Source of the DNA: a virus
Virus genome (UHGV): UHGV-0378206
Reading direction: 5' to 3' (one strand)
Length of the DNA stretch: 34,503 nucleotides
Made by a program: the position numbers and the translations under genes. Shown here in pieces: positions 9,604 to 21,380 of this stretch (position 1 is the first letter of the stretch; every line of letters starts with the position of its first letter). Under the pieces are notes generated by a model that did not search any database, was not told the DNA's origin, and was given only the letters and a program-made list of their open reading frames with translations.

Positions 9604-10617
9604 TTACGGTTGGCTGTTTTTAACATTCAAAAGAAAGTTCTTCCAAATTATTTGCAGTGAATTTTTATCTAAATCAATCTTATGAGGTTTGATGTTTTTT
9701 CCTTCATATATATTTTTGTAATAGCAATCGATAGCAAAATGAATAGTTAAATTATCTGGATGTATGGCTAGTAGACCTCGGTCAAGCAAGGCATGAAGGG
9801 TAGGTTCAAGAGGTATTCCATTGTTGGTTCTATGGTTTTGGGTCTGAGAAAATGGTTCAAGGTGACATGCCTGCAATACTGGGAGGTTGTAACCTGTTAT
9901 TGCGCATACATTTGAGAAGTTTTTTAGAACCCTTTTTTTAAAGTCAACCTGTTCGCCAGAGTCACGCTGTAATACTGTTTGCAGATGAGTATTGCCTTTT
10001 GTGACAACTGGTATACTAATTGTATCAGAGGGATTTATAAATATGACTGGCGGTAGAGTAGGTTCTAGAATGTTTTTTTGTCCAAGAAACTGCCTTGATA
10101 ATAATTCATCTTTAGCGATTTTTATTGCTTCACTTTTTGTTAATGAAAGGCATGCCAGATTATACGCATCTACATTGAAATATTTAGTTTCCCTGTTTAG
10201 CGTAATGGATGATATTTTTTTATCGTGTTCTGCTATTGGTATACCTTTTGTGACAGGATGCGAAATGCTTTCAAGCAGTGTTGTATTGCCATTTATTTCT
10301 TTATTAAACAATGAGGTAGGGTGTTCAATCATATTGCTATGCTTGGCGCGATAGTGCTCATATAGGCCATGAGCACTTTTGAAATTTTTCTTGCATATTA
10401 TACAGCTAACATTTCCTCCATTAATTTTTTTTGAATTTCTTTTTCTGGATTCAACAAGAGAGTTTGTTAGATCTTCTCTTAGTTTTAATATTCTGAGGTT
10501 GGTTGGGTTGTTTCCTCGTCTATATGGTAAGCTCTCAAGTCTATTTAACTCATTTTTGAGGTGTTGGTACTGTTTACGTGAAATTAAATTAGGTTTCATA
10601 TTTAAGATTAAGATCAC
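9604..10617 (-). CDS. C2H2 zinc-finger plus HNH_2-type nuclease domain protein (prophage cargo between att and int)
   Basis: 'CIICKKNFKSAHGLYEHYRAKH' (C2H2 finger); C-terminal 'CAITGYNLPVLQACHLEP...NNGIPLEPTLHALLDRGLLAIH' matches the HNH_2 signature; gene is AT-rich unlike the adjacent int. Confidence 0.65.
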   Translation of the reverse strand: MILILNMKPNLISRKQYQHLKNELNRLESLPYRRGNNPTNLRILKLREDLTNSLVESRKRNSKKINGGNVSCIICKKNFKSAHGLYEHYRAKHSNMIEHPTSLFNKEINGNTTLLESISHPVTKGIPIAEHDKKISSITLNRETKYFNVDAYNLACLSLTKSEAIKIAKDELLSRQFLGQKNILEPTLPPVIFINPSDTISIPVVTKGNTHLQTVLQRDSGEQVDFKKRVLKNFSNVCAITGYNLPVLQACHLEPFSQTQNHRTNNGIPLEPTLHALLDRGLLAIHPDNLTIHFAIDCYYKNIYEGKNIKPHKIDLDKNSLQIIWKNFLLNVKNSQP

Positions 10618-10639: not shown

Positions 10640-11671
10640 TTACATGTTATTCGACAAGTATATAAAGTTCAAAGGGTTTTTCGTTACTGCATCTTCCAGA
10701 TGGTCTGGAGAAAAATGGGCGTAAATCATCGTCATTTTTATATCGGCATGGCCCAAAATATCGCGCAGTACCAGTATGTTTCCGCCGTTCATCATGAAAT
10801 GGCTGGCGAATGTATGGCGTAGAACGTGGGTGCATTGTCCCTCTGGCAGTTCAATACCAGCTCGTTTTACTGCCCGTTCAAAGGCTTTTCTGCATGGGGT
10901 GAATAGCCTTCCTCTGTTTTTAGGGAGTTCGTTGTAAAGATCCTGAGATATTGGCACGGTACGGTTTTTCTTGCCCTTCGTCTTGGTATAAGTGATGCGG
11001 TATTTGGATAACTGATGGCCCTGCAGATTTTCTGCTTCACTCCACCGTGCGCCAGTAGCTAGGCATATTTTTGCAATCATTAGTAAGCTAGGGCTTTGAG
11101 ATTCAGCACATGCCGCCAACAGGCGCTTGATTTCGTCCGTGGAAAGAAAAGCCAGCTCACCTTCGGCAATTTTGAAGGTCGGAAGTCCTGCCAGCGGGTT
11201 TGGTGCTGACCAGTGTCCTAGTTTTTTTAATGTACCGAACACCGATGATAGATTGCGCTGTTCAAGGTTTACCGTGCGGGGCTTAACGGGCGACATAAGC
11301 GTGCCATCTTCATTTCGTATTTCACCTTTTAACCGTGCTTCGCGGTATTTCGTAAAGTCTCCGGCTGTCAGCTCAGAGGCGATGGGGTCGCCTAGACCAT
11401 TACAGATAATTCTAAGTTTCGCCATGAGGCGCTTGGGGTCTGCGAGTGTCTGACCATACAGGGAATACCAAAGCTCAATTAATTCTGATAGGCGTCGCCG
11501 ATCATCCTTTTCACCCAACCACGGTTTTTTATTCACTTCTTCCATTGTGAAGCTTTCAAACGCAATGGCTTCGCCTTTCGTGGCAAATTGCTTACGCACG
11601 CGCTTGCCATTGCGTCCATTGGGATAGCACTCACACAACCATTTTCCGTTCGGCTGTTTTCTGATGGTCAT
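10640..11671 (-). CDS. int: P2-type tyrosine integrase
   Basis: 'GRNGKR', 'RRLSEL', 'TGARWSEA', 'RTVPIS', 'HVLRHTFASHFMMNGG', 'LGH...MTMIYAHFSPDHLEDAV' match P2 Int signature blocks. Confidence 0.9.
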   Translation of the reverse strand: MTIRKQPNGKWLCECYPNGRNGKRVRKQFATKGEAIAFESFTMEEVNKKPWLGEKDDRRRLSELIELWYSLYGQTLADPKRLMAKLRIICNGLGDPIASELTAGDFTKYREARLKGEIRNEDGTLMSPVKPRTVNLEQRNLSSVFGTLKKLGHWSAPNPLAGLPTFKIAEGELAFLSTDEIKRLLAACAESQSPSLLMIAKICLATGARWSEAENLQGHQLSKYRITYTKTKGKKNRTVPISQDLYNELPKNRGRLFTPCRKAFERAVKRAGIELPEGQCTHVLRHTFASHFMMNGGNILVLRDILGHADIKMTMIYAHFSPDHLEDAVTKNPLNFIYLSNNM

Positions 11672-11672
11672 A

Positions 11673-12305
11673 TCAAAGGCTCTTAATGATTTTCAGTGCG
11701 CGGCCTACTACCTCAATGTCATCCAGATCGCACTCAAACGATGAATCATCCTGATGCACTACTAATTTGTTTCCCGGGAGTCGAGTCAATTTAACGATGC
11801 TTTTTATCCCGTCGATATCGACTAACCACATACCATTTACTGGTGGTGTTTGGTTGCGATCTATTAAATAAGAATCACCAGAAGTAGTCACCAGCAGTAG
11901 GTTGCTTGAGTCTGAGGGGAGTATGCTGCTATCAATGATTGCTTTTCCAGCATCGACCAATAAACCACCGTTGAGAGTCGCCTTGTCAATTTCAGGAGAT
12001 ACTAGTTCAGAAAGAGGTACAACCTTGCTGGAGTTCACGGAATTGATATTTTTTTTAGGTTCAATGTTTGGACCTGGATCCCCCTGTCCGGTGGTTAGCC
12101 ACAGTAAAGAAACTCCTGTTTCCAAGGCGCACTGAATCACCCACTCTGCAGGGAAACTATCTCTTAAGTATCTGTTTGCCATGGTGCTTTTTGATGCGCC
12201 TAAGTGATCGCAAAGTTGCTGTCTGGACTTGAAATCATAGGCTGCCATTAGTCTATGGATAGCCTCTCTTCCCCCTGTATTCTCTCCAACCTTTACCTGT
12301 ATCAT
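11673..12305 (-). CDS. cI: 186-type CI immunity repressor
   Basis: N-terminal HTH ('QCALETGVSLLWLTTGQG') and C-terminal 'WLVDIDGIKSIVKLTRLPGNKL...FECDLDDIEVVGR' resemble coliphage 186 CI; divergent from the cox/apl-like gene. Confidence 0.7.
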   Translation of the reverse strand: MIQVKVGENTGGREAIHRLMAAYDFKSRQQLCDHLGASKSTMANRYLRDSFPAEWVIQCALETGVSLLWLTTGQGDPGPNIEPKKNINSVNSSKVVPLSELVSPEIDKATLNGGLLVDAGKAIIDSSILPSDSSNLLLVTTSGDSYLIDRNQTPPVNGMWLVDIDGIKSIVKLTRLPGNKLVVHQDDSSFECDLDDIEVVGRALKIIKSL

Positions 12306-12317
12306 TTTTTAATCCTG

Positions 12318-12369
12318 TTGACGTATCAAATATTGGATCGTAGTATCTCGATGTATCAAATATTGAATC
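12318..12369 (+). promoter_or_regulatory. candidate early rightward promoter with two repeated operator-like sites
   Basis: -35 'ttgacg' (12318..12323), 17-nt spacer, -10 'tagtat' (12341..12346); 18-nt near-identical direct repeats 'gtatcaaatattggatcg' (12323..12340) and 'gtatcaaatattgaatca' (12352..12369), each with internal dyad symmetry. Confidence 0.4.
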
Positions 12370-12424
12370 AAGTAAAACGAGATAAAACGACGTAAACCAA
12401 ACCTTAATCGGGAGATACTGCACT

Positions 12425-12667
12425 ATGAGCACTGATATTTCAATTCGTGTACCAAAAGAGATGGCTACGCCTGCAGAGTTCGCGGAATGGGAAGGTATCT
12501 CCCGCGGCTCCGTGTATCAAAAAATTCACCATGGTCAGCTTGCTAAATACATGGTCAAGAAAGAAAAAAACAAAGGCCGCGTAAGCCTGCGTTATTTAAT
12601 GTACAAAACCGATCAGGTCCGTGAATCCCTCGGTCATTCCAACTTCCGCGTCATTGTTGGTAAGTAA
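12425..12667 (+). CDS. Cox/Apl-like small HTH regulator/excisionase (putative)
   Basis: 80-aa ORF first in the rightward early operon; HTH-like 'AEFAEWEGISRGSVYQKIHHGQL'; same position as P2 cox / 186 apl. Confidence 0.5.
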   Translation: MSTDISIRVPKEMATPAEFAEWEGISRGSVYQKIHHGQLAKYMVKKEKNKGRVSLRYLMYKTDQVRESLGHSNFRVIVGK

Positions 12668-12699
12668 GTTCAATTATGAGAACTTTCTAAGGGGGTAGC

Positions 12700-13209
12700 A
12701 TGTTTGATTATAAGATTTCCAAACACCCGCATTTTGATGAAGCCTGTAGAGCTTTTGCACTTCGTCACAATATGGCGAAGCTGGCAGAACGTGCAGGAAT
12801 GAATGTCCAGACTCTGCGAAACAAACTCAACCCAGATCAACCGCATCAGCTCAATGCGCCAGATATCTGGCTACTTACCGATCTGACGGAAGATTCAACG
12901 CTGGTAGACGGTTTTCTGGCACAGATTCACTGCCTGCCATGTGTACCGATTAATGAGGTGGCAAAAGAGAAACTGCCACATTACGTCATGAGTGCAACCG
13001 CAGAGATCGGGCGTGTTGCTGCAGGTGCGGTATCTGGCGATGTAAAAACCAGTGCAGGTCGTCGTGATGCTATCAGCAGCATTAACTCTGTTACACGACT
13101 GATGGCGTTAGCTGCTGTTTCATTGCAGGCCCGTTTACAGGTTAATCCTGCGATGGCAAGTGCAGTTGATACTGTAACTGGCCTCGGTGCTTCATTCGGT
13201 TTGCTGTGA
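12700..13209 (+). CDS. cII: phage CII-like regulatory protein (186 CII family)
   Basis: 'MFDYKISKHPHFDEACRAFALRHNMAKLAERAGM...LRNKLNPDQPH' resembles 186 CII; RBS 'aagggggtag'. Confidence 0.7.
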   Translation: MFDYKISKHPHFDEACRAFALRHNMAKLAERAGMNVQTLRNKLNPDQPHQLNAPDIWLLTDLTEDSTLVDGFLAQIHCLPCVPINEVAKEKLPHYVMSATAEIGRVAAGAVSGDVKTSAGRRDAISSINSVTRLMALAAVSLQARLQVNPAMASAVDTVTGLGASFGLL

Positions 13210-13216
13210 GGTGCTT

Positions 13217-13417
13217 ATGCTGACGAAAGAACCATCATTTGCATCGCTGCTGGTAAAACAAAGTCCGGCAATGCACTACGGTCACGGCTGGATCATGGGT
13301 GAGGATGGTAAACGCTGGCATCCGTGCCGTTCGCAAGATGAATTGCTGGCAGAACTATCAACGAAAAAACGGGGGAACCAATGGCTATTGAAGGCGCTGC
13401 GGCGACTGTTCCATTAA
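13217..13417 (+). CDS. hypothetical early phage protein
   Basis: ORF 13187..13417; preferred start ATG 13217 after RBS 'gaggtg'. Confidence 0.4.
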   Translation: MLTKEPSFASLLVKQSPAMHYGHGWIMGEDGKRWHPCRSQDELLAELSTKKRGNQWLLKALRRLFH

Positions 13418-13722
13418 GACCCGGTGAACGCCTGAATGGACTTAATCATATTGCGGAGTTAAGGGCGAAAGTTTTTGGCCTGAATATTGAGTCAGAGCTG
13501 GAGCGGTTTATTAAAGATATGCGTGATCCACGGGATATCAATAATGAACAAAATAAACGGGCACTGGCTGCCATATTCTTTATGGCAAAAATTCCAGCTG
13601 AACGTCATAGCATCAGCATTAATGAGCTGACCACTGACGAAAAGCGGGAGTTGATTAAAGCAATGAATCATTTTCGTGCAGTGGTGAGCTTATTTCCCAG
13701 ACGGTTAACCATGCCGAATTAA
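13381..13722 (+). CDS. hypothetical early phage protein
   Basis: 113-aa ORF in the early operon; function not recognised. Confidence 0.4.
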   Translation: MAIEGAAATVPLRPGERLNGLNHIAELRAKVFGLNIESELERFIKDMRDPRDINNEQNKRALAAIFFMAKIPAERHSISINELTTDEKRELIKAMNHFRAVVSLFPRRLTMPN

Positions 13723-13783
13723 CCAACTAATGAAATTAATGGCGTAAACCCGCCGGGCATCCCTTTATCTAAATTCAGGAGAA

Positions 13784-14023
13784 TTGATTATGCGTAATAT
13801 TGAAACCCTCACGACTAAAACCGGACCGGATGACGCAGGGCTTAATATTTTACTGACAGAGGCTCGTCTGGAAGAACGCCGGGCAAGGGCTGAAGCAATG
13901 GCAGCTCGCCTTGATAGTCTGGCGTGTCATATTACATCCCGCCAGCTAAACCACGTCGAAGCGGCAGAACTGCTGCGTGTGACTGCTGAAGCAATCCAGA
14001 ACGAAGCGCAGGAGATCCACTAA
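13784..14023 (+). CDS. hypothetical early phage protein
   Basis: 79-aa ORF with RBS 'caggag'; coiled-coil-like. Confidence 0.4.
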   Translation: MIMRNIETLTTKTGPDDAGLNILLTEARLEERRARAEAMAARLDSLACHITSRQLNHVEAAELLRVTAEAIQNEAQEIH

Positions 14024-14250
14024 TGGCTGATGCAATGGATCTCGTACAGCAGCGCGTTGAAGAAGAACGCCAGCGCCATATCCGTGCTGCCCGTGCCAAA
14101 ACACCGGGCGTGTCACGCGTACTTTGCATTGAATGTGAAGCGCCAATTCCGCCAGCACGACGCCGCGCCATTCCGGGAGTGCAGCTTTGCATTACCTGTC
14201 AGGAAATCGCAGAACTGAAAGGCAAACATTACAACGGAGGTGCTGTATGA
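14023..14250 (+). CDS. TraR/DksA-family C4 zinc-finger protein
   Basis: 'CIECEAPIP...CITCQE' four-Cys finger; typical small P2/186 early protein; stop overlaps the dam start (ATGA). Confidence 0.65.
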   Translation: MADAMDLVQQRVEEERQRHIRAARAKTPGVSRVLCIECEAPIPPARRRAIPGVQLCITCQEIAELKGKHYNGGAV

Positions 14251-15095
14251 GCACCATCCTGAAATGGGCGGGAAATAAAACGGCCATTATGGCAGAACTG
14301 AAAAAATACCTTCCTGCTGGCCCGCGACTGGTTGAACCTTTCGCGGGTTCCTGCGCAGTGATGATGGAGACGGATTACCCCAGCTATCTGGTTGCGGATA
14401 TTAATTCTGATTTAATCAACCTCTATAAAAAGGTTGCCGCTGATTGTGAATCGTTTATATCTCGCGCCAGAGTTTTATTTGAGAACGCAAACAGGGAGAT
14501 GGCTTATTACAACATAAGGCAGGAGTTTAATTACTCAACTGAAATTACTGATTTCATGAAAGCAGTATATTTCCTGTATCTCAATCGTCACGGTTACCGT
14601 GGTTTATGTCGCTATAACAAGAGCGGGCATTTCAACATTCCCTACGGTAATTATAAAAATCCGTATTTCCCTGAAAAAGAAATTCGTGCATTTGCAGAAA
14701 AAGCCCAGCGGGCAACATTTATCTGCGCCAGCTTCGATGAAACGCTGGCAATGTTGCACGCGGGGGATGTTGTGTATTGCGATCCGCCTTATGACGGTAC
14801 GTTTTCCGGTTATCACACTGACGGCTTCACTGAAGATGACCAGTATCACCTGGCATCCGTTCTTGAACATCGGTCATCAGAAGGACATCCGGTCATTGTT
14901 TCTAACAGTGACACATCCCTGATCCGTTCGCTGTATCGCAATTTCACTCACCACTACATCAAGGCAAAACGCAGCATTGGCGTGTCAGCTGGCGAGAGTA
15001 AATCTGCAACAGAAATCATTGCCACCAAATCAGCTGGGTGGTTTGGTGTCGATTTTGCCAGCGGCTCTGACCGTACCGTTGAGGTACGCGCATGA
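14247..15095 (+). CDS. dam: DNA adenine methyltransferase (Dam family)
   Basis: N-terminal 'LKWAGNK...EPFAGS' AdoMet-binding motif and 'DPPY' catalytic motif ('[10 protein letters not shown]'); ORF 14187..15095 with preferred start 14247. Confidence 0.85.
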
Positions 15096-16102
15096 ATGCT
15101 ATCGATCCGCGTTGCTTTGCCTCAGGCACAATTAACGTCATCACTACTTCTGGTGGCAAAGATAGTCTCGCTCAATGGCTAAGAGCCATTGAAAACGATG
15201 TTCCGCATATTTCTGTATTTGCCGATACGGGTCATGAACATCCACAGACAATAGAATATCTGGATTATCTGGAATCAAAGCTGGGCAAGATTATTCGCGT
15301 CAAAGCGGATTTCACACGCCAGATAGAAGGGAAACGTAAATTCATTGCGGAAAAGTGGCCCATTTCTCTCGTTGAGGAATGTGGTATGTCGACAGATGAG
15401 GCTGAGGAACGTATTTACCGGGCACTGGAAATCCTTAAACCAACCGGCGTTCCGTTTCTTGATTTGTGCATGTGGAAAGGTCGCTTCCCTTCAACAAAAG
15501 CTCGTTTCTGCACTTTTGAACTGAAACATGAACCAATACGTACACAGGTAATCGATCCAGCTCTGGATGAATACGATGAGGTAATAAGCTGGCAAGGAGT
15601 CCGGGGGCAGGAATCACCGGAACGTGCATTGTTGCCTGAGTGGGAGGACGATGCAGACAATACTCTGGGGCTGCATGTTTATCGTCCGATCCTTAATTGG
15701 CTGCATGAGGATGTGTTTGCTATTGCCAAACGTCATGGCATTAAGCCTAACCCCCTTTATATGCAGGGATGCAGTCGTGTCGGTTGTATGCCATGCATTC
15801 ATGCTCGCAAGTCAGAACTTGGAGAGATTTTCCAACGCTGGCCAGAAGAAATCCGCCGAGTGGCTGAGTGGGAAAGACTGGTTGCGGAATGTTCAAGACG
15901 TGGCAATTCAACGTTCTTTCAATCCACGCATGATCCGCGCCGTGCTGAAAAACGGATCGAAGTCATAACTGTTGATGCTTATGGCATTGAAACTTATCGG
16001 GACTGGGCCTTAACGACTCGGGGCGGTATGCAGTTTGACCTGCTGGCAGGCATGAATGATAAAGCGGTGTGCAGCAGTGTATATGCAGGAGTCTGTGAGT
16101 GA
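15092..16102 (+). CDS. PAPS-reductase-like (PP-loop ATP pyrophosphatase family) protein
   Basis: PP-loop 'TSGGKDS' near N-terminus; Cys cluster '[13 protein letters not shown]'; translationally coupled to dam and gene A. Confidence 0.7.
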
Positions 16103-18540
16103 CAGAGATCAGCACAGGCCGTCTTGCCGATCCATTTGTCAGTGTAACTTCCGGTAGCATTGAGAATTCTGCCGGGGGTTATTCGTGGAATTTACCTAAG
16201 AAAGCCATTAACCCTTATCTGGACCCGGCGGAAGTTGCGCCGGTTTCTGCGCTTTCAAACCTGATCACTCTGTACGCTACCGATAACGAGCAGGAACAAC
16301 TGCGCCGCGAGGCACTGAGTGATCAGGTCTGGGAGCGTTATTTCTTTAATGAATCCCGTGATCCTGTCCAGCGCGAAATGGAGCAGGATAAGCTCATTAG
16401 CCGGGCAAAGTTGGCGCATGAGCAGCAGCGTTTTAACCCGGACATGGTCATTCTGGCAGACGTCAGCGCCCAGCCCTCCCATATCAGCAAGCCGCTGATG
16501 CAACGTATTGAATACTTCAGCAGCCTGGGCAGGCCAAAGGCTTATTCCCGCTATTTACGTGAGACGATTAAGCCATGTCTGGAACGACTGGAGCATGTAC
16601 GCGACAGCCAGCTATCTGCATCTTTTCGTTTTATGGCAAGCCATGTAGGGCTGGACGGCCTGCTGATTCTGCCTGAAATGAGTCAGGATCAGGTGAAACG
16701 CCTGTCTACCCTTGTCGCTGCGCATATGAGTATGTGCCTTGATGCAGCTTGTGGTGATTTGTATGCCACCGATGACGTTAAGCCAGAAGAAATCCGCAAG
16801 ACATGGGAAAAGGTGGCAGCGGAAACCCTGCGTCTGGATGTCATCCCGCCTGCGTTTGAGCAACTCCGTCGGAAAAGAAACCGCCGTAAACCCGTGCCCT
16901 ATGAACTCATTCCGGGTTCGCTGGCGCGTATGTTGTGCGCCGACTGGTGGTACCGGAAATTATGGAAAATGCGTTGCGAATGGCGGGAAGAGCAGTTGCG
17001 TGCTGTCTGCCTGGTCAGCAAAAAAGCATCTCCCTATGTCAGCTATGAAGCCGTGATGCATAAACGTGAGCAGCGCCGCAAGTCACTGGAGTTTTTCCGT
17101 TCTCATGAACTGGTGAACGAAGAGGGCGACACGCTGGATATGGAAGACGTGGTAAACGCCAGCAGCAGCAACCCGGCGCACCGCCGCAATGAGATGATGG
17201 CCTGTGTTAAAGGTCTGGAGCTTATCGCGGAAATGCGCGGTGACTGCGCCGTTTTCTACACCATTACCTGTCCGTCACGTTTCCATTCTACGCTCAATAA
17301 CGGCAGACCAAACCCAACCTGGACAAATGCGACGGTAAGACAAAGCAGCGATTATCTGGTCGGCATGTTTGCTGCATTTCGTAAGGCGATGCACAAAGCC
17401 GGGTTGCGCTGGTATGGCGTGCGGGTGGCTGAGCCGCATCATGACGGTACAGTTCACTGGCACCTGTTGTGTTTCATGCGCAAAAAAGACCGCCGCGCCA
17501 TTACTGCATTGTTGCGTAAGTTTGCCATCCGTGAAGACCGCGAGGAACTGGGTAATAACACTGGTCCACGCTTTAAATCTGAGCTGATAAACCCGCGCAA
17601 AGGAACGCCGACAAGCTACATCGCGAAATACATCAGTAAGAACATTGACGGGCGTGGTCTGGCTGGCGAGATCAGCAAGGAAACGGGTAAATCCCTGCGT
17701 GATAACGCTGAATACGTTAATGCCTGGGCGTCTCTGCATCGTGTACAGCAATTCCGCTTCTTTGGTATTCCGGGACGTCAGGCTTACCGTGAACTTCGCT
17801 TGCTGGCTGGTCAGGCGGCAAGGCAACAAGGTGACAAAAAAGCAGGTGCGCCGGTACTGGATAACCCGCGTCTTGATGCCATTCTGGCTGCTGCTGATGC
17901 TGGTTGTTTTGCCACCTACATCATGAAGCAGGGCGGCGTACTGGTCCCCCGCAAATATCACCTCATCAGAACCGCTTATGAAATCAACGAAGAGCCAACC
18001 GCCTATGGCGATCACGGTATTCGTATTTATGGCATCTGGTCACCCATTGCAGAGGGCAAGATCTGCACTCATGCAGTGAAGTGGAAAATGGTTCGTAAGG
18101 CCGTTGACGTTCAGGAGGCGGCAGCCGACCAGGGCGCTTGCGCCCCTTGGACTCGTGGCAATAACTGTCCCCTTGCTGAAAATTTGAACCAACAGGAGAA
18201 AGATAAATCAGCTGATGGGGACCCCAGAACGGACATTACCAGCATGGATGACAAGGAGTTGCACGATTACCTGCACAGTATGAGCAAAAAAGAGCGCCGG
18301 GAACTGGCAGCAAGGTTACGCCTGGTGAAACCGAAACGGCGTAAAGACTACAAACAGCGAATTACAGACCATCAGCGACTGCAGCTCGTGTATGAGCTGA
18401 AGTCCAGAGGATTTGATGGCAGCGAGAAAGAGGTCGATTTACTCCTTCGCGGAGGCAGTATTCCGTCAGGAGCAGGCCTGCGTATCTTCTATCGGAACCA
18501 GCGTTTGCAGGAAGATGATCAGTGGCGGAACCTGTATTAA
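16099..18540 (+). CDS. A: replication initiation endonuclease (P2 gpA family, rolling-circle HUH)
   Basis: 813-aa ORF with '[13 protein letters not shown]' HUH-type motif and conserved Tyr-containing region; position and size match P2 A. Confidence 0.85.
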
Positions 18541-18632
18541 TTACGCGGGTTAACAATTCGTGCTCTTAATAATACCAGGCATATCAGGCTGATGAACGTA
18601 AAAAAACGTTTTACATCAGTAAGATTATTATA

Positions 18633-18652
18633 TACTGTAAATATAAACAGTG
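18633..18652. promoter_or_regulatory. LexA (SOS) box
   Basis: 'tactgtaaatataaacagtg' = CTGT-N8-ACAG with AT-rich spacer, 41 nt upstream of the 18694 start. Confidence 0.6.
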
Positions 18653-18693
18653 GTTATGCATACAGTATTGCGTGTGGTGTCATAGGAGGAAAG

Positions 18694-18882
18694 ATGCAGG
18701 ACTATTTTTTGGAGTCTTTGAAGCTCCAGCGCATTGATTTTTTTCTTAAGCTTGTAGCGGCTAGTGAGTGTAGTGATGAGGAGAAGGGGCTGGCTCTGCA
18801 GTGGGTTTCTGAATTGACTGATGAACTCATGGCAAAAATCAGAACCCACGAATACAACCGCTCAATGGATGTCATCAGCTGA
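18694..18882 (+). CDS. hypothetical protein; possible N-terminal part of a Tum-like antirepressor
   Basis: 62 aa from ATG 18694 (RBS 'aggagga'); follows the LexA box; overlaps the next ORF in a different frame. Confidence 0.4.
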   Translation: MQDYFLESLKLQRIDFFLKLVAASECSDEEKGLALQWVSELTDELMAKIRTHEYNRSMDVIS

Positions 18883-19349: not shown

Positions 19350-19439
19350 CGCGCGTTGCAAACCATGTCGATGCTGTTATCATTTGCAGCAAGTTTTCAA
19401 AGTGCTAAAGCATTCTTTAATTCCAAGGTAGGTATAGAT

Positions 19440-21380
19440 ATGATAGCCGGGTTGTTTATCCGTAACGTCAAAACATATCAAGGCATAAATTATATTCCTT
19501 TGACAGACGCTCCAAATTTTAGCGGTTTCTTAGGAAATAATGGGATAGGGAAAAGCTCAATACTTGAGGCATTGGATGTAATATTTAATGCTAAAGAGTG
19601 GAATTATAATACAGCTGTCAAAAAGAGCGGTATAGAAAAAACCAGCCCACATATTGTACCGGTTTTTATATTGGAGGAGGATTTTTTTGATTCTGAGACA
19701 CTCCCTTTTGCAAAAACGCTAGATGCTTTAGCTAGGGAGGTTAGCTTAGAGGATGCTACAAACTCACAAACAAAAACTATTCTTGAAAATTTTATAAGTC
19801 ATCGTGATAGACTTTTTGCACGAAATGATATGCAAGGGCAGTTAATTATTCCTATTGGACGCCTTCATAATAATAATATGTCATTATCTGTTTTAGCAGG
19901 TAGAAGTCTATCTACTATAATGGAAAAAGATATATTTGGTGCCGGATTCAAGTTAAGTGAAGGTATAGAGTTAGCTAAACATTTTCAAGTTTTATTTGAT
20001 TATATCACTGGTAAGTTAGAATATTTATATATACCAAAAGAGATTGATACTGAGGTTTTTACTAAGCTTGAGAGTATTGGAACTCAAGTATTGATGGGTG
20101 AATCGCTGCATGAAATTCTTGATAGAATAGTTGGTGAGTCAAAAATTGGAGAAATCAACAGAGAACTAAGCGGATTTCTTGAAGATATCTCAACGAAGCT
20201 AGTTAACTATACGTATAGAACGCCTTCGGATAGGCAAAAAAGAATTCAAAAAAAAGAAGTCTATAACTTAATTATACAAGCGTTTTTTAACGTCAGAAAA
20301 TTACATAAAACCCACAATGGCGAGCATTTTTTAGAAATTAGTAATTTGAGTTCGGGGGAAAAGCAGAAGGCTATTATTGATGTTGCGCATGCATTGCTGA
20401 CAAAGCATAGAAGTAATAGTGATAATTTAATCATAGCCATAGATGAGCCTGAGTCTTCATTGCACATGTCTGCTTGTTTTGAACAATTTCAAGCGTTATC
20501 AGAACTAAGTTTAGGATGTAGGCAACTATTGTTTTCCTCTCATTGGTATGGTTTTCTCCCCACCTTGGAAAAGGGAACTGTTACAATAATAACTAAAAAA
20601 AATAATGAGCATCTTTTTGATCTGATCAATTTAGCATCTTACCGGGAAGAAATAAAACAACTTGTTCGAGATAGTAGGGGAAAGTTACCATTTGATATTA
20701 GAATTAAAAGTATGAATGATTTTACTCAGTCATTATTATCTAGTGCAACAGGTGAGAAACCATATAATTGGTTGATTTGTGAGGGTTCATCGGAAAGAAT
20801 TTATCTTTCAGCATATTTTAAGGATTTGATAAAGAATCATAATCTTCGTATTGTACCTGTTGGGGGGGCGTCGGAAATTAAAAAAATATATAACTATCTC
20901 TCTGCCTGCTATAAGGATGTCGAAGGGGAGATTACCGGAAATATATATTTGTTAGCTGATACTGATAGCCAGTTGGTCAGATATGACGTCGGAACATATC
21001 AAAGATTACATTGTAAAAGATTTGTTTATGATTCGTCTAAAAACAGGGCGATCTTAGTTAAGATAGACACAAATCCGGTATCGCCTGCAACTGAGATAGA
21101 GGATGTTTTGAACGCAAAAATCTATTACCAGACCTTATTGTCATTTGCTGGTGATTACGATTATTTAAGTTTCATTAATAATATTGATGCTCCAAGTGAT
21201 AATCTGGAATCTTACTCAGCTCTTGATCTCAGAGTTAGTGAAAAAAATGCCATAAATAGATTTTTTGATGATGGAAATAATAAGTTTTTATTCGCAAAAA
21301 GATATGTTGAATTAATGACGGAAGAAAATAGTGTTCCAGAGTGGATTAGTGAGATTAGAGAGGTAATGACTTCAGCTTAG
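19440..21380 (+). CDS. ABC-type ATPase fused to Toprim-like nuclease domain (OLD-family-like; possibly fused PARIS AriA-AriB-like) at the P2 old/tin cargo position
   Basis: Walker A 'GNNGIGKSS', ABC signature-like 'LSSGEKQ', Walker B 'LIIAIDEPESSLH'; C-terminal 'LICEGSSER' and 'LLADTDS' fit Toprim E / DxD motifs; AT-rich; preferred start ATG 19440 (RBS 'aaggtagg'), ORF opens at 19356. Confidence 0.75.
   Translation: MIAGLFIRNVKTYQGINYIPLTDAPNFSGFLGNNGIGKSSILEALDVIFNAKEWNYNTAVKKSGIEKTSPHIVPVFILEEDFFDSETLPFAKTLDALAREVSLEDATNSQTKTILENFISHRDRLFARNDMQGQLIIPIGRLHNNNMSLSVLAGRSLSTIMEKDIFGAGFKLSEGIELAKHFQVLFDYITGKLEYLYIPKEIDTEVFTKLESIGTQVLMGESLHEILDRIVGESKIGEINRELSGFLEDISTKLVNYTYRTPSDRQKRIQKKEVYNLIIQAFFNVRKLHKTHNGEHFLEISNLSSGEKQKAIIDVAHALLTKHRSNSDNLIIAIDEPESSLHMSACFEQFQALSELSLGCRQLLFSSHWYGFLPTLEKGTVTIITKKNNEHLFDLINLASYREEIKQLVRDSRGKLPFDIRIKSMNDFTQSLLSSATGEKPYNWLICEGSSERIYLSAYFKDLIKNHNLRIVPVGGASEIKKIYNYLSACYKDVEGEITGNIYLLADTDSQLVRYDVGTYQRLHCKRFVYDSSKNRAILVKIDTNPVSPATEIEDVLNAKIYYQTLLSFAGDYDYLSFINNIDAPSDNLESYSALDLRVSEKNAINRFFDDGNNKFLFAKRYVELMTEENSVPEWISEIREVMTSA

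Follow-up and report, generated by a model that had tools for sequence, protein, structure and literature searches.

A dam gene and an orf84-family PP-loop gene in the variable slot before gene A of a 186/P2-type prophage

Introduction

Does a dam gene that overlaps a gene for a PP-loop protein in the early lytic operon of a prophage form, together with it, a module for DNA modification or anti-restriction, or are the two genes separable neighbors? The question is raised by the UHGV virus genome UHGV-0378206, a stretch of 34,503 nucleotides referred to here, at its full length, as the window. An earlier note on this sequence described the second gene product as similar to 3'-phosphoadenosine 5'-phosphosulfate (PAPS) reductases, pointed out that such proteins, DndC for example, also occur in DNA-modification pathways, and proposed that the pair could be such a module. 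Its coordinates, the gene overlaps, the DPPY and SGGKDS motifs and the cysteine cluster are all present and accurate to the base. The two genes are:

14247-15095, plus strand: dam, 282 amino acids (PF02086, TIGR00571)
15092-16102, plus strand: PP-loop gene, 336 amino acids, PAPS-reductase fold (PF01507; homologue of phage 186 Orf84/CP84)

The most likely reading, which we favor with moderate confidence, is that the PP-loop protein is an ATP-dependent iron-sulfur (Fe-S) sulfur- or adenylyl-transferase. Its substrate would be nucleic acid and its role the modification of phage DNA or counter-defence, with a genomic link to methyltransferases but no dependence on this particular Dam. Phages very often carry "PAPS reductases" (PHROG 424 and its relatives), and virome studies routinely class them as auxiliary genes of sulfur metabolism; the sequence features and neighborhoods described below argue that this subfamily, at least, consists of ATP-dependent Fe-S enzymes with a connection to DNA modification or counter-defence. 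If this is true, many interpretations of auxiliary metabolic genes (AMGs) would need revision, and phages would have a further, newly defined answer to immunity based on phosphorothioates. Because 186 and P2 are genetically tractable in Enterobacteria, and phages with dam only, with the PP-loop gene only and with both are found in nature, the question is directly testable.

The PP-loop protein as a predicted adenylating Fe-S enzyme

The PP-loop gene is not new: it is a member of the orf84 family and thus an already annotated accessory gene. Phage 186 Orf84/CP84 (NP_052288.1) is 80.5% identical in amino acids over residues 4-336, or 99% of the length, in a tblastn search that also matches the corresponding genes in Yersinia phage P37 and in a record labelled Peduovirus P2. 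In Pfam, the protein matches PF01507 (PAPS_reduct; E=5.6e-34, 118.1 bits, gathering threshold 22.5) and nothing else, with no DUF3440 or DNA-binding domain; among PHROGs, it matches phrog_424 (E=7e-82) and phrog_15238 (E=1.7e-85). The family comprises more than 6268 clusters at 90% identity, with intact full-length open reading frames (ORFs). At 50% identity, 343 representatives reach E<=1e-30, nearly all of them stand-alone proteins of 300-380 amino acids. In Acidovorax phage Acica (L007) and Comamonadaceae loci L044-L061, an insertion of ~40-60 residues follows ~residue 95 (window numbering), between the PP-loop half and the region of C140.

The protein has six cysteines (C140, C227, C232, C235, C327 and C335). 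Conservation was assessed in 121 representatives, homologues at 38-60% identity, and the conserved features of the window protein are:

15149-15166, plus strand: SGGKDS, canonical adenylation (PP-loop) motif, residues 20-25, conserved in homologues
15509-15511, plus strand: Cys140, candidate Fe-S ligand, 100% conserved in the 121 representatives
15785-15796, plus strand: C232-M-P-C235, a CxxC, candidate Fe-S ligands, 100% and 98% conserved in the same set
16070-16096, plus strand: C-terminal pair C327...C335, with C335 98% and C327 79% conserved in the same set

SGGKDS is invariant in 10 diverse phage homologues and 93-95% conserved in the 121 representatives. Since the PP-loop residues together with C140, C232, C235 and C335 are conserved at 93-100%, a working enzyme is indicated rather than a decoy. 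The segment RVGCMPC aligns with SIGCAPC of Mycobacterium tuberculosis adenosine 5'-phosphosulfate (APS) reductase (7lhr), whose GCAPC is the Fe-S-binding CxxC of that enzyme. A [4Fe-4S] site built from C140, C232, C235 and a fourth ligand is therefore considered probable from these alignments, and the conserved C-terminal pair suggests a reactive cysteine carried on a flexible tail. In the AlphaFold2 (AF2) model, the core (residues 1-270) is confident, with a predicted local distance difference test score (pLDDT) of ~85-95, and the tail that bears C327 and C335 is probably mobile according to this model.

The nearest solved folds are PAPS and APS reductases (Foldseek probability 1.00), followed by the Fe-S thiolase TtuA and by QueC; no DndC or SspD structure appears among the matches of the PDB and viral fold searches, which are generic PAPS/APS reductases, TtuA and QueC only. 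One PDB sequence match is named "PptA" (21fy_C, E=0.003), a name that could not be traced in the literature. With CysH, the window protein has in common the fold and the DTG and W-G-R-x-x-S motifs. However, it scores below all CysH and APS-reductase cut-offs (PRK02090, 63.5 versus 154; TIGR00434, 36.7 versus 165.1; TIGR02057, 36.4 versus 254.2; TIGR02055, 47.9 versus 235.3), and these matches cover only ~residues 150-250. At the position of SGGKDS, CysH has a degenerate P-loop, SSSFGIQA. Escherichia coli CysH also has no cysteines at the position of the CxxC, whereas the CxxC of Fe-S APS reductases aligns with that of the window protein. The C-terminal catalytic motif ECGLH is absent from the window protein, which ends in YAGVCE; a motif of the ECGLH type is a defining feature of the CysH family. 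Taken together, these differences point to an orf84-like protein that is not a PAPS reductase of sulfate assimilation but an ATP pyrophosphatase that would adenylate a substrate.

Closer parallels are found among enzymes of DNA phosphorothioation and defence. DndC is a [4Fe-4S]-dependent ATP pyrophosphatase with SGGKDS (PMC6435447). DndC, SspD and BrxP share with the window protein the PAPS-reductase fold, an identical SGGKDS and cysteines fit for a [4Fe-4S] cluster (predicted in the window protein), and ParB-like (DndB-like) genes adjoin some of its relatives. In the PADLOC library, SspD is the best match (E=3.8e-23), ahead of BrxP (5.6e-12) and DndC (3e-6); the SspD match is partial (residues 126-269 versus profile positions 71-203 of 277), has no curated cut-off and is not accompanied by sspBC-like neighbors. 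Unlike these proteins, the window gene is phage-borne, stand-alone, smaller (336 amino acids) and without a restriction module. A resemblance to DndC/SspD rather than to CysH is supported by SGGKDS, the Fe-S-aligned CxxC, the conserved C-terminal cysteines and the SspD match; the profile searches that the earlier note had suggested returned PAPS_reduct, phrog_424 and phrog_15238, with the cut-offs for CysH, APS reductases and DndC all missed. On the sequence, we infer a DndC/SspD-like adenylating Fe-S enzyme that makes up a subfamily of its own.

Methyltransferases and other neighbors of the PP-loop gene

Neighborhoods were compared in 64 loci, consisting of 10 phage loci and 54 genome loci, one per species. 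The orf84 homologue lies directly 5' of gene A in 186, P37 and 27 of the 54 species loci. According to Pfam, a methyltransferase (MTase) gene stands directly 5' of the PP-loop gene in 26/64 loci (D12, 14; C5, 8; N6_N4, 3; MT-A70, 1), and 4 more methylases stand directly 3' of it. In a jackhmmer survey, 44 MTase ORFs lay within 3.5 kb, and 28 of these abut the PP-loop gene, compared with ~25% expected by random placement in the flanks (binomial p ~7e-8), and for non-P2 lineages alone the figure is 14/23 (p ~3e-4); both values overstate the case, because the loci are phylogenetically non-independent and early operons are hotspots of accessory genes. Examples of adjacency include phiE125 gp56-gp57, Rivra gp59-60-61, Acidovorax phage Acica and Shewanella phage SFCi1. 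Even so, chance is a poor explanation for juxtaposition with four unrelated MTase families in several lineages of phages. Further neighbors that recur act on DNA as well, namely ParB-like, ASCH/DUF3850, Lar, dATP/dGTP diphosphohydrolase and DUF5405 genes.

Some loci carry MTase genes on both sides. A prophage of Kosakonia oryziphila (L013 2518-5434) has Dam, the PP-loop gene, a C5 MTase and gpA in succession, and Agrobacterium phage Rivra (L003 2050-5212) has MT-A70, the PP-loop gene and a second annotated MTase.

No fusion of the two activities in one polypeptide turned up in the 150 best representatives at 50% identity; these are stand-alone with respect to MTases, although one of 560 residues has a weak Methyltransf_23 match (2.7e-4). 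A "DNA modification methylase" of Methanoculleus virus Blf4 was considered as a PAPS-MTase fusion and rejected, as it has no Pfam methylase domain. This protein (L150 1242-2486) is 414 amino acids long, with PAPS_reduct at residues 183-357 after an N-terminal region of 180 residues without assignment. Short PAPS-like proteins (~250 amino acids) of BcepB1A, phiAC-1 and Vibrio phage 1.047.O were treated as a separate subfamily, were excluded from the statistics, and are encoded among replication genes without methylases.

DUF5405 (186 CP83) is the other recurrent 5' partner, found in 5/64 of these loci (L001 3226-3501, which is 186 orf83, L016, L018, L021, L024 and L042 being the examples noted) and in 10/80 loci of the wider survey described below. 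Vibrio phage 1.047.O, which is unrelated, also has a CP83 homologue (L066 344-637), three genes 5' of its short PAPS-like gene. DUF5405 and the PP-loop gene may thus be partners in function.

Precedent and proposed activity

An association of PAPS-type domains with adenine methylation has been described in Vibrio phages. The podovirus 44E38.1 of Vibrio crassostreae encodes p0018, a 479-residue fusion of an N-terminal PAPS domain and a C-terminal Dam domain (Piel et al. 2022; preprint 10.1101/2021.05.05.442762). Two genes set apart the phages able to grow on a host with Dnd, namely this one and the adjacent p0019, to which no function has been assigned, and swapping both into a sensitive Vibrio phage allowed it to overcome Dnd, an effect credited by the authors at least partly to the PAPS domain (10.1101/2021.05.05.442762). 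Thus, in p0018 as in the window, a PAPS-reductase-type domain and an adenine methylase occur together in a phage. However, p0018 is a single polypeptide with PAPS first and a short Dam domain (~170 amino acids), whereas the window has two ORFs, with dam first and a 282-residue Dam of the D12 class. PAPS reductases have also been placed in Aca-regulated anti-defence operons by a 2026 survey, which cites the Vibrio anti-Dnd result. Whether GATC methylation protects from GATC-type Dnd restriction is disputed in the literature.

The SGGKDS loop, the predicted Fe-S site and the predicted tail cysteine make up a toolkit common to DndC, SspD and the thiolase TtuA. With such a toolkit, the PP-loop enzyme would adenylate an oxygen on its nucleic-acid target, and the adenylated oxygen would then be replaced by sulfur from the host cysteine desulfurase pool; alternatively, the protein might interfere in another manner with sulfur-based DNA marking. 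Replicating phage DNA could thereby be shielded from phosphorothioate-sensing or other restriction. The enzyme would act beside, and independently of, whichever DNA methyltransferase the phage carries, with Dam contributing GATC methylation separately.

A bolder form of this proposal, which we regard as a long shot, is that the stand-alone PP-loop enzyme is a minimal, portable writer of DNA sulfur. It would draw sulfur from the host desulfurase and use the neighboring MTase (here Dam at GATC) as a targeting partner, and the phosphorothioate or other thio mark that it would place on replicating phage DNA would counterfeit the host "self" and so escape Dnd, Ssp and BREX-type-4 systems. Both the natural PAPS-Dam fusion and the repeated adjacency to MTases of four unrelated families would then be accounted for.

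Several points weigh against an adenylating Fe-S enzyme of DNA modification or counter-defence. The DndC model TIGR03183 gives 17.2 bits versus a cut-off of 290.4, over residues 133-210 only. Residues 271-336, the cysteine-bearing tail of 66 residues, are modelled with pLDDT <50. The PAPS domain of p0018 may belong to a subfamily other than that of the window protein. Phosphorothioation as known requires the partners DndD/E or SspB/C, and no dndD/dndE or sspB/C gene adjoins the window gene (the neighbors are TraR, dam and A); the flanking Pfam surveys of the 64 loci likewise show no dndD or dndE. Part of the MTase association could stem from the gathering of accessory genes in one early-operon hotspot, and the loci are phylogenetically non-independent. 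186 Orf84 is annotated simply as non-essential, with no function assigned. Finally, dam and the PP-loop gene assort independently in close relatives, which include dam-only, PP-loop-only and double phages.

The Dam methylase

The product of dam is a Dam-family N6-adenine DNA methyltransferase. It matches PF02086 (E=7e-76, 255.7 bits, threshold 22), TIGR00571 (321.1 bits, cut-off 114.85, which places it in the family) and the PADLOC "orphan MTase" profile (E=2.5e-110), and aligns over nearly its full length with the structure of E. coli Dam (2g1p, E=1.5e-73). The S-adenosylmethionine-binding motif I, EPFAGS, and CDPPY are both found in the translation and aligned to 2g1p; the catalytic motif lies at:

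14781-14792, plus strand: DPPY, catalytic motif IV of Dam, read in the sequence; the DPPY of E. coli Dam 2g1p aligns to it

The protein falls below the host-Dam equivalog cut-off (290 versus 441). Because the alignment with E. coli Dam runs almost end to end and includes the region of the DNA-recognition hairpin, GATC specificity is a reasonable expectation, and the phage Dam is probably GATC-specific. GATC itself occurs 107 times in the whole window against ~132 expected, a mild and uninformative under-representation despite the phage Dam.

dam and the PP-loop gene as separable occupants of one slot

The cargo slot of this early lytic operon, between a TraR-like gene and gene A, is filled by dam and the orf84 homologue. 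The genes that border the slot, and the segment that sets the window apart from its closest relatives, are:

14023-14250, plus strand: TraR/DksA-type C4 zinc-finger gene, 75 amino acids (PF01258, E=3e-11; TIGR02419, 65.8 bits, above the cut-off)
16099-18540, plus strand: gene A, rolling-circle replication initiator, 813 amino acids, GTG start (PF05840, E=1.7e-127)
15022-16181, plus strand: mosaic segment that the closest dam-only phages lack, from pairwise alignment with Cartapus

The TraR-like gene is the conserved gene 5' of this variable slot. Its stop codon (TGA) overlaps the ATG of dam in ATGA (14247-14250), the stop of dam overlaps the PP-loop start in ATGA (15092-15095), and the PP-loop stop overlaps the start of gene A in GTGA (16099-16102). 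As all four genes are joined by 4-base stop/start overlaps, ribosomes that end one gene can restart on the next. Shine-Dalgarno sequences are normally spaced for dam, where GGAGG lies 6 nucleotides 5' of the start, and for the PP-loop gene. In relatives, gaps between Dam and the PP-loop gene are mostly -4 or -1 and those between the PP-loop gene and A mostly -4 or -10, exact values being approximate as they were computed from longest-ORF starts. A scan for promoters and terminators over 12300-18800 gave sites no commoner than in shuffled sequence, and we propose no regulatory element inside the operon.

Phage 186, a P2-like phage of the CI/Apl/CII type, has orf84 in the same place of the same early lytic operon, directly 5' of A with a 4-base overlap. 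Its record describes orf84 as "not essential", assigns it no function and states that its translation to the end is apparently needed for translation of the A protein. In light of this annotation, the translational coupling seen in the window is an established feature of gene A expression. The overlaps reflect expression of gene A behind any preceding gene and no special link between Dam and the PP-loop protein. In contrast to the window, the genes 5' of orf84 in 186 are a DnaQ-like exonuclease (orf82) and DUF5405 (orf83), without dam; in P37, the order is TraR, a DUF5405-like gene and the PP-loop gene, likewise without dam.

The reverse arrangement also occurs. In the dam-only phages Cartapus, RE2010 and KP12 and in many Klebsiella prophages, TraR, dam and A are 95-97% identical in nucleotides to those of the window and the regulatory region is the same, but the PP-loop gene is absent and dam overlaps A directly. 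The megablast match to the closest phages accordingly falls into two pieces and covers 49% of the query. Homology with Cartapus ends at ~15022, in the last ~24 codons of dam, and returns at ~16181, ~27 codons into A. Since both breaks lie inside flanking genes, the PP-loop gene moves as a cassette by recombination within them, with the junction overlaps kept. A hairpin with a 10-bp stem and a T-rich tract (15023-15048, plus strand) lies inside the 3' end of dam, exactly at the Cartapus homology break; terminator-like sites are no commoner here than in shuffles. Across phages, the slot holds dam only (Cartapus, RE2010), DUF5405 and PP-loop genes (186, P37), or Dam, PP-loop and C5 MTase genes (the Kosakonia prophage).

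These arrangements bear on the explanation that the two genes are an obligate module, in which Dam would give GATC recognition, a further mark would be placed by the PP-loop enzyme on these sites or close to them, and neither gene would be useful alone. Besides the 4-base overlap of the two genes, the pairing itself speaks for such a module: Dam is directly 5' in 13/29 P2-like species loci. The same holds for 25/80 relatives of the PP-loop gene in IMG/VR (69-100% identity), with Dam within a few 5' genes in ~10 more of these. The natural PAPS-Dam fusion, which is anti-Dnd when swapped in with one neighboring gene, and the MTases that flank the PP-loop gene on both sides in Rivra and the Kosakonia prophage point the same way. 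Nevertheless, close relatives hold either gene alone, with dam then joined to A. TraR is directly 5' in 12/80 of the IMG/VR loci, PP-loop alleles ~90% identical to that of the window among them; DUF5405 (10/80) and ParB-like genes (4, in non-P2-like loci) take the same position. In complete E. coli genomes, 1252/5426 match a dam+PP-loop query, mostly in the dam part only, and just 24 match over >=80% of the pair; there the pair is found at 98-99.6% nucleotide identity and is annotated by PGAP. The MTases that partner the PP-loop gene fall into four unrelated families and therefore have neither one chemistry nor one site in common. That 186 and P37 manage without dam counts similarly, with the caveat that enterobacterial hosts encode a Dam of their own, which could stand in for a missing phage gene. 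An obligate module is therefore judged unlikely.

The pairing of dam with the PP-loop gene is common and not obligatory, and it forms a real accessory cassette. Of the proposal that the pair could be a DNA-modification or anti-restriction module, the general direction is favored by the MTase juxtaposition and by the Vibrio anti-Dnd precedent, while a dedicated two-gene module is not, as either gene occurs alone. In roughly half of the relatives, or more, no dam adjoins the PP-loop gene, which bears on the refuting condition named in the earlier note, a PP-loop gene found without dam in most relatives.

Regulatory, metabolic and passenger alternatives

The orf84-like protein might instead be a regulator akin to IbrA that, with a ParB-like or other partner, modulates prophage or host expression rather than protecting DNA, which we consider improbable. 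IbrA is a PAPS-reductase-like protein with a C-terminal DUF3440, encoded next to the ParB-like IbrB. In IMG/VR loci L096, L099, L107 and L108, outside P2 and without gene A, homologues 81-85% identical have a ParB-like gene directly 5', an arrangement that parallels DndB-DndC and IbrB-IbrA. ParB-like genes are also found near the homologues in Riah and phiE125, and phage phi458 has a homologue, 34% identical, that carries the annotation of transcriptional regulator. A 2002 study, cited in PMC10434257 and PMC4490671, also speaks for this reading. Yet the operon of the window has no ParB-like gene, the Pfam scan of the protein found neither a DUF3440 nor a DNA-binding domain, and the conserved catalytic residues favor an enzyme. 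The mechanism of IbrA itself could equally be DNA modification.

Most papers call phage PAPS reductases sulfur-metabolism auxiliary genes, without a test, and PHROG 424 carries the label "moron, auxiliary metabolic gene". On this reading, the protein would reduce PAPS or APS with the help of thioredoxin, as a cysH product does, and so raise sulfate assimilation in the host, in keeping with the Pfam match and the best structural matches. The missed cut-offs and short match region, the ATP-type SGGKDS in place of SSSFGIQA and the lack of an ECGLH-type C-terminus argue otherwise, as does the position in an early lytic operon beside replication and methylase genes, with neighbors that act on DNA. 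Hosts, moreover, already encode cysH. A role in sulfate assimilation is accordingly very unlikely.

Least probable of all, and hardly credible in our view, is a passenger ORF kept because translation through it expresses A, its enzyme function being dispensable or decaying: this would suit the 186 annotation and a slot that can be empty or hold other genes that then overlap A, but the motifs are strictly conserved over hundreds of 50%-identity clusters (the 343 with E<=1e-30), phages without gene A included, and the ORFs are intact and full-length in more than 6000 clusters at 90% identity.

Prophage context

The window is a prophage of the 186/P2 type. Beyond the early operon genes described above, its markers include:

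10640-11671, minus strand: integrase
11673-12305, minus strand: 186-type CI repressor
12700-13209: CII

DUF5347, DUF2732 and a DinI/Tum-like gene are also present, in addition to gene A. At 19356-21380 (plus strand), a 674-residue ORF combines an AAA_15/AAA_21 ATPase with an OLD-like TOPRIM domain. This OLD-family nuclease, located where P2-type phages have a cargo hotspot, past the A region and before the portal gene, is probably encoded by the prophage for defence. Directly outside the integrase, 9604-10617 (minus strand) encodes a 337-residue protein with an HNH_2 endonuclease domain, which could be prophage-edge cargo or a host gene.

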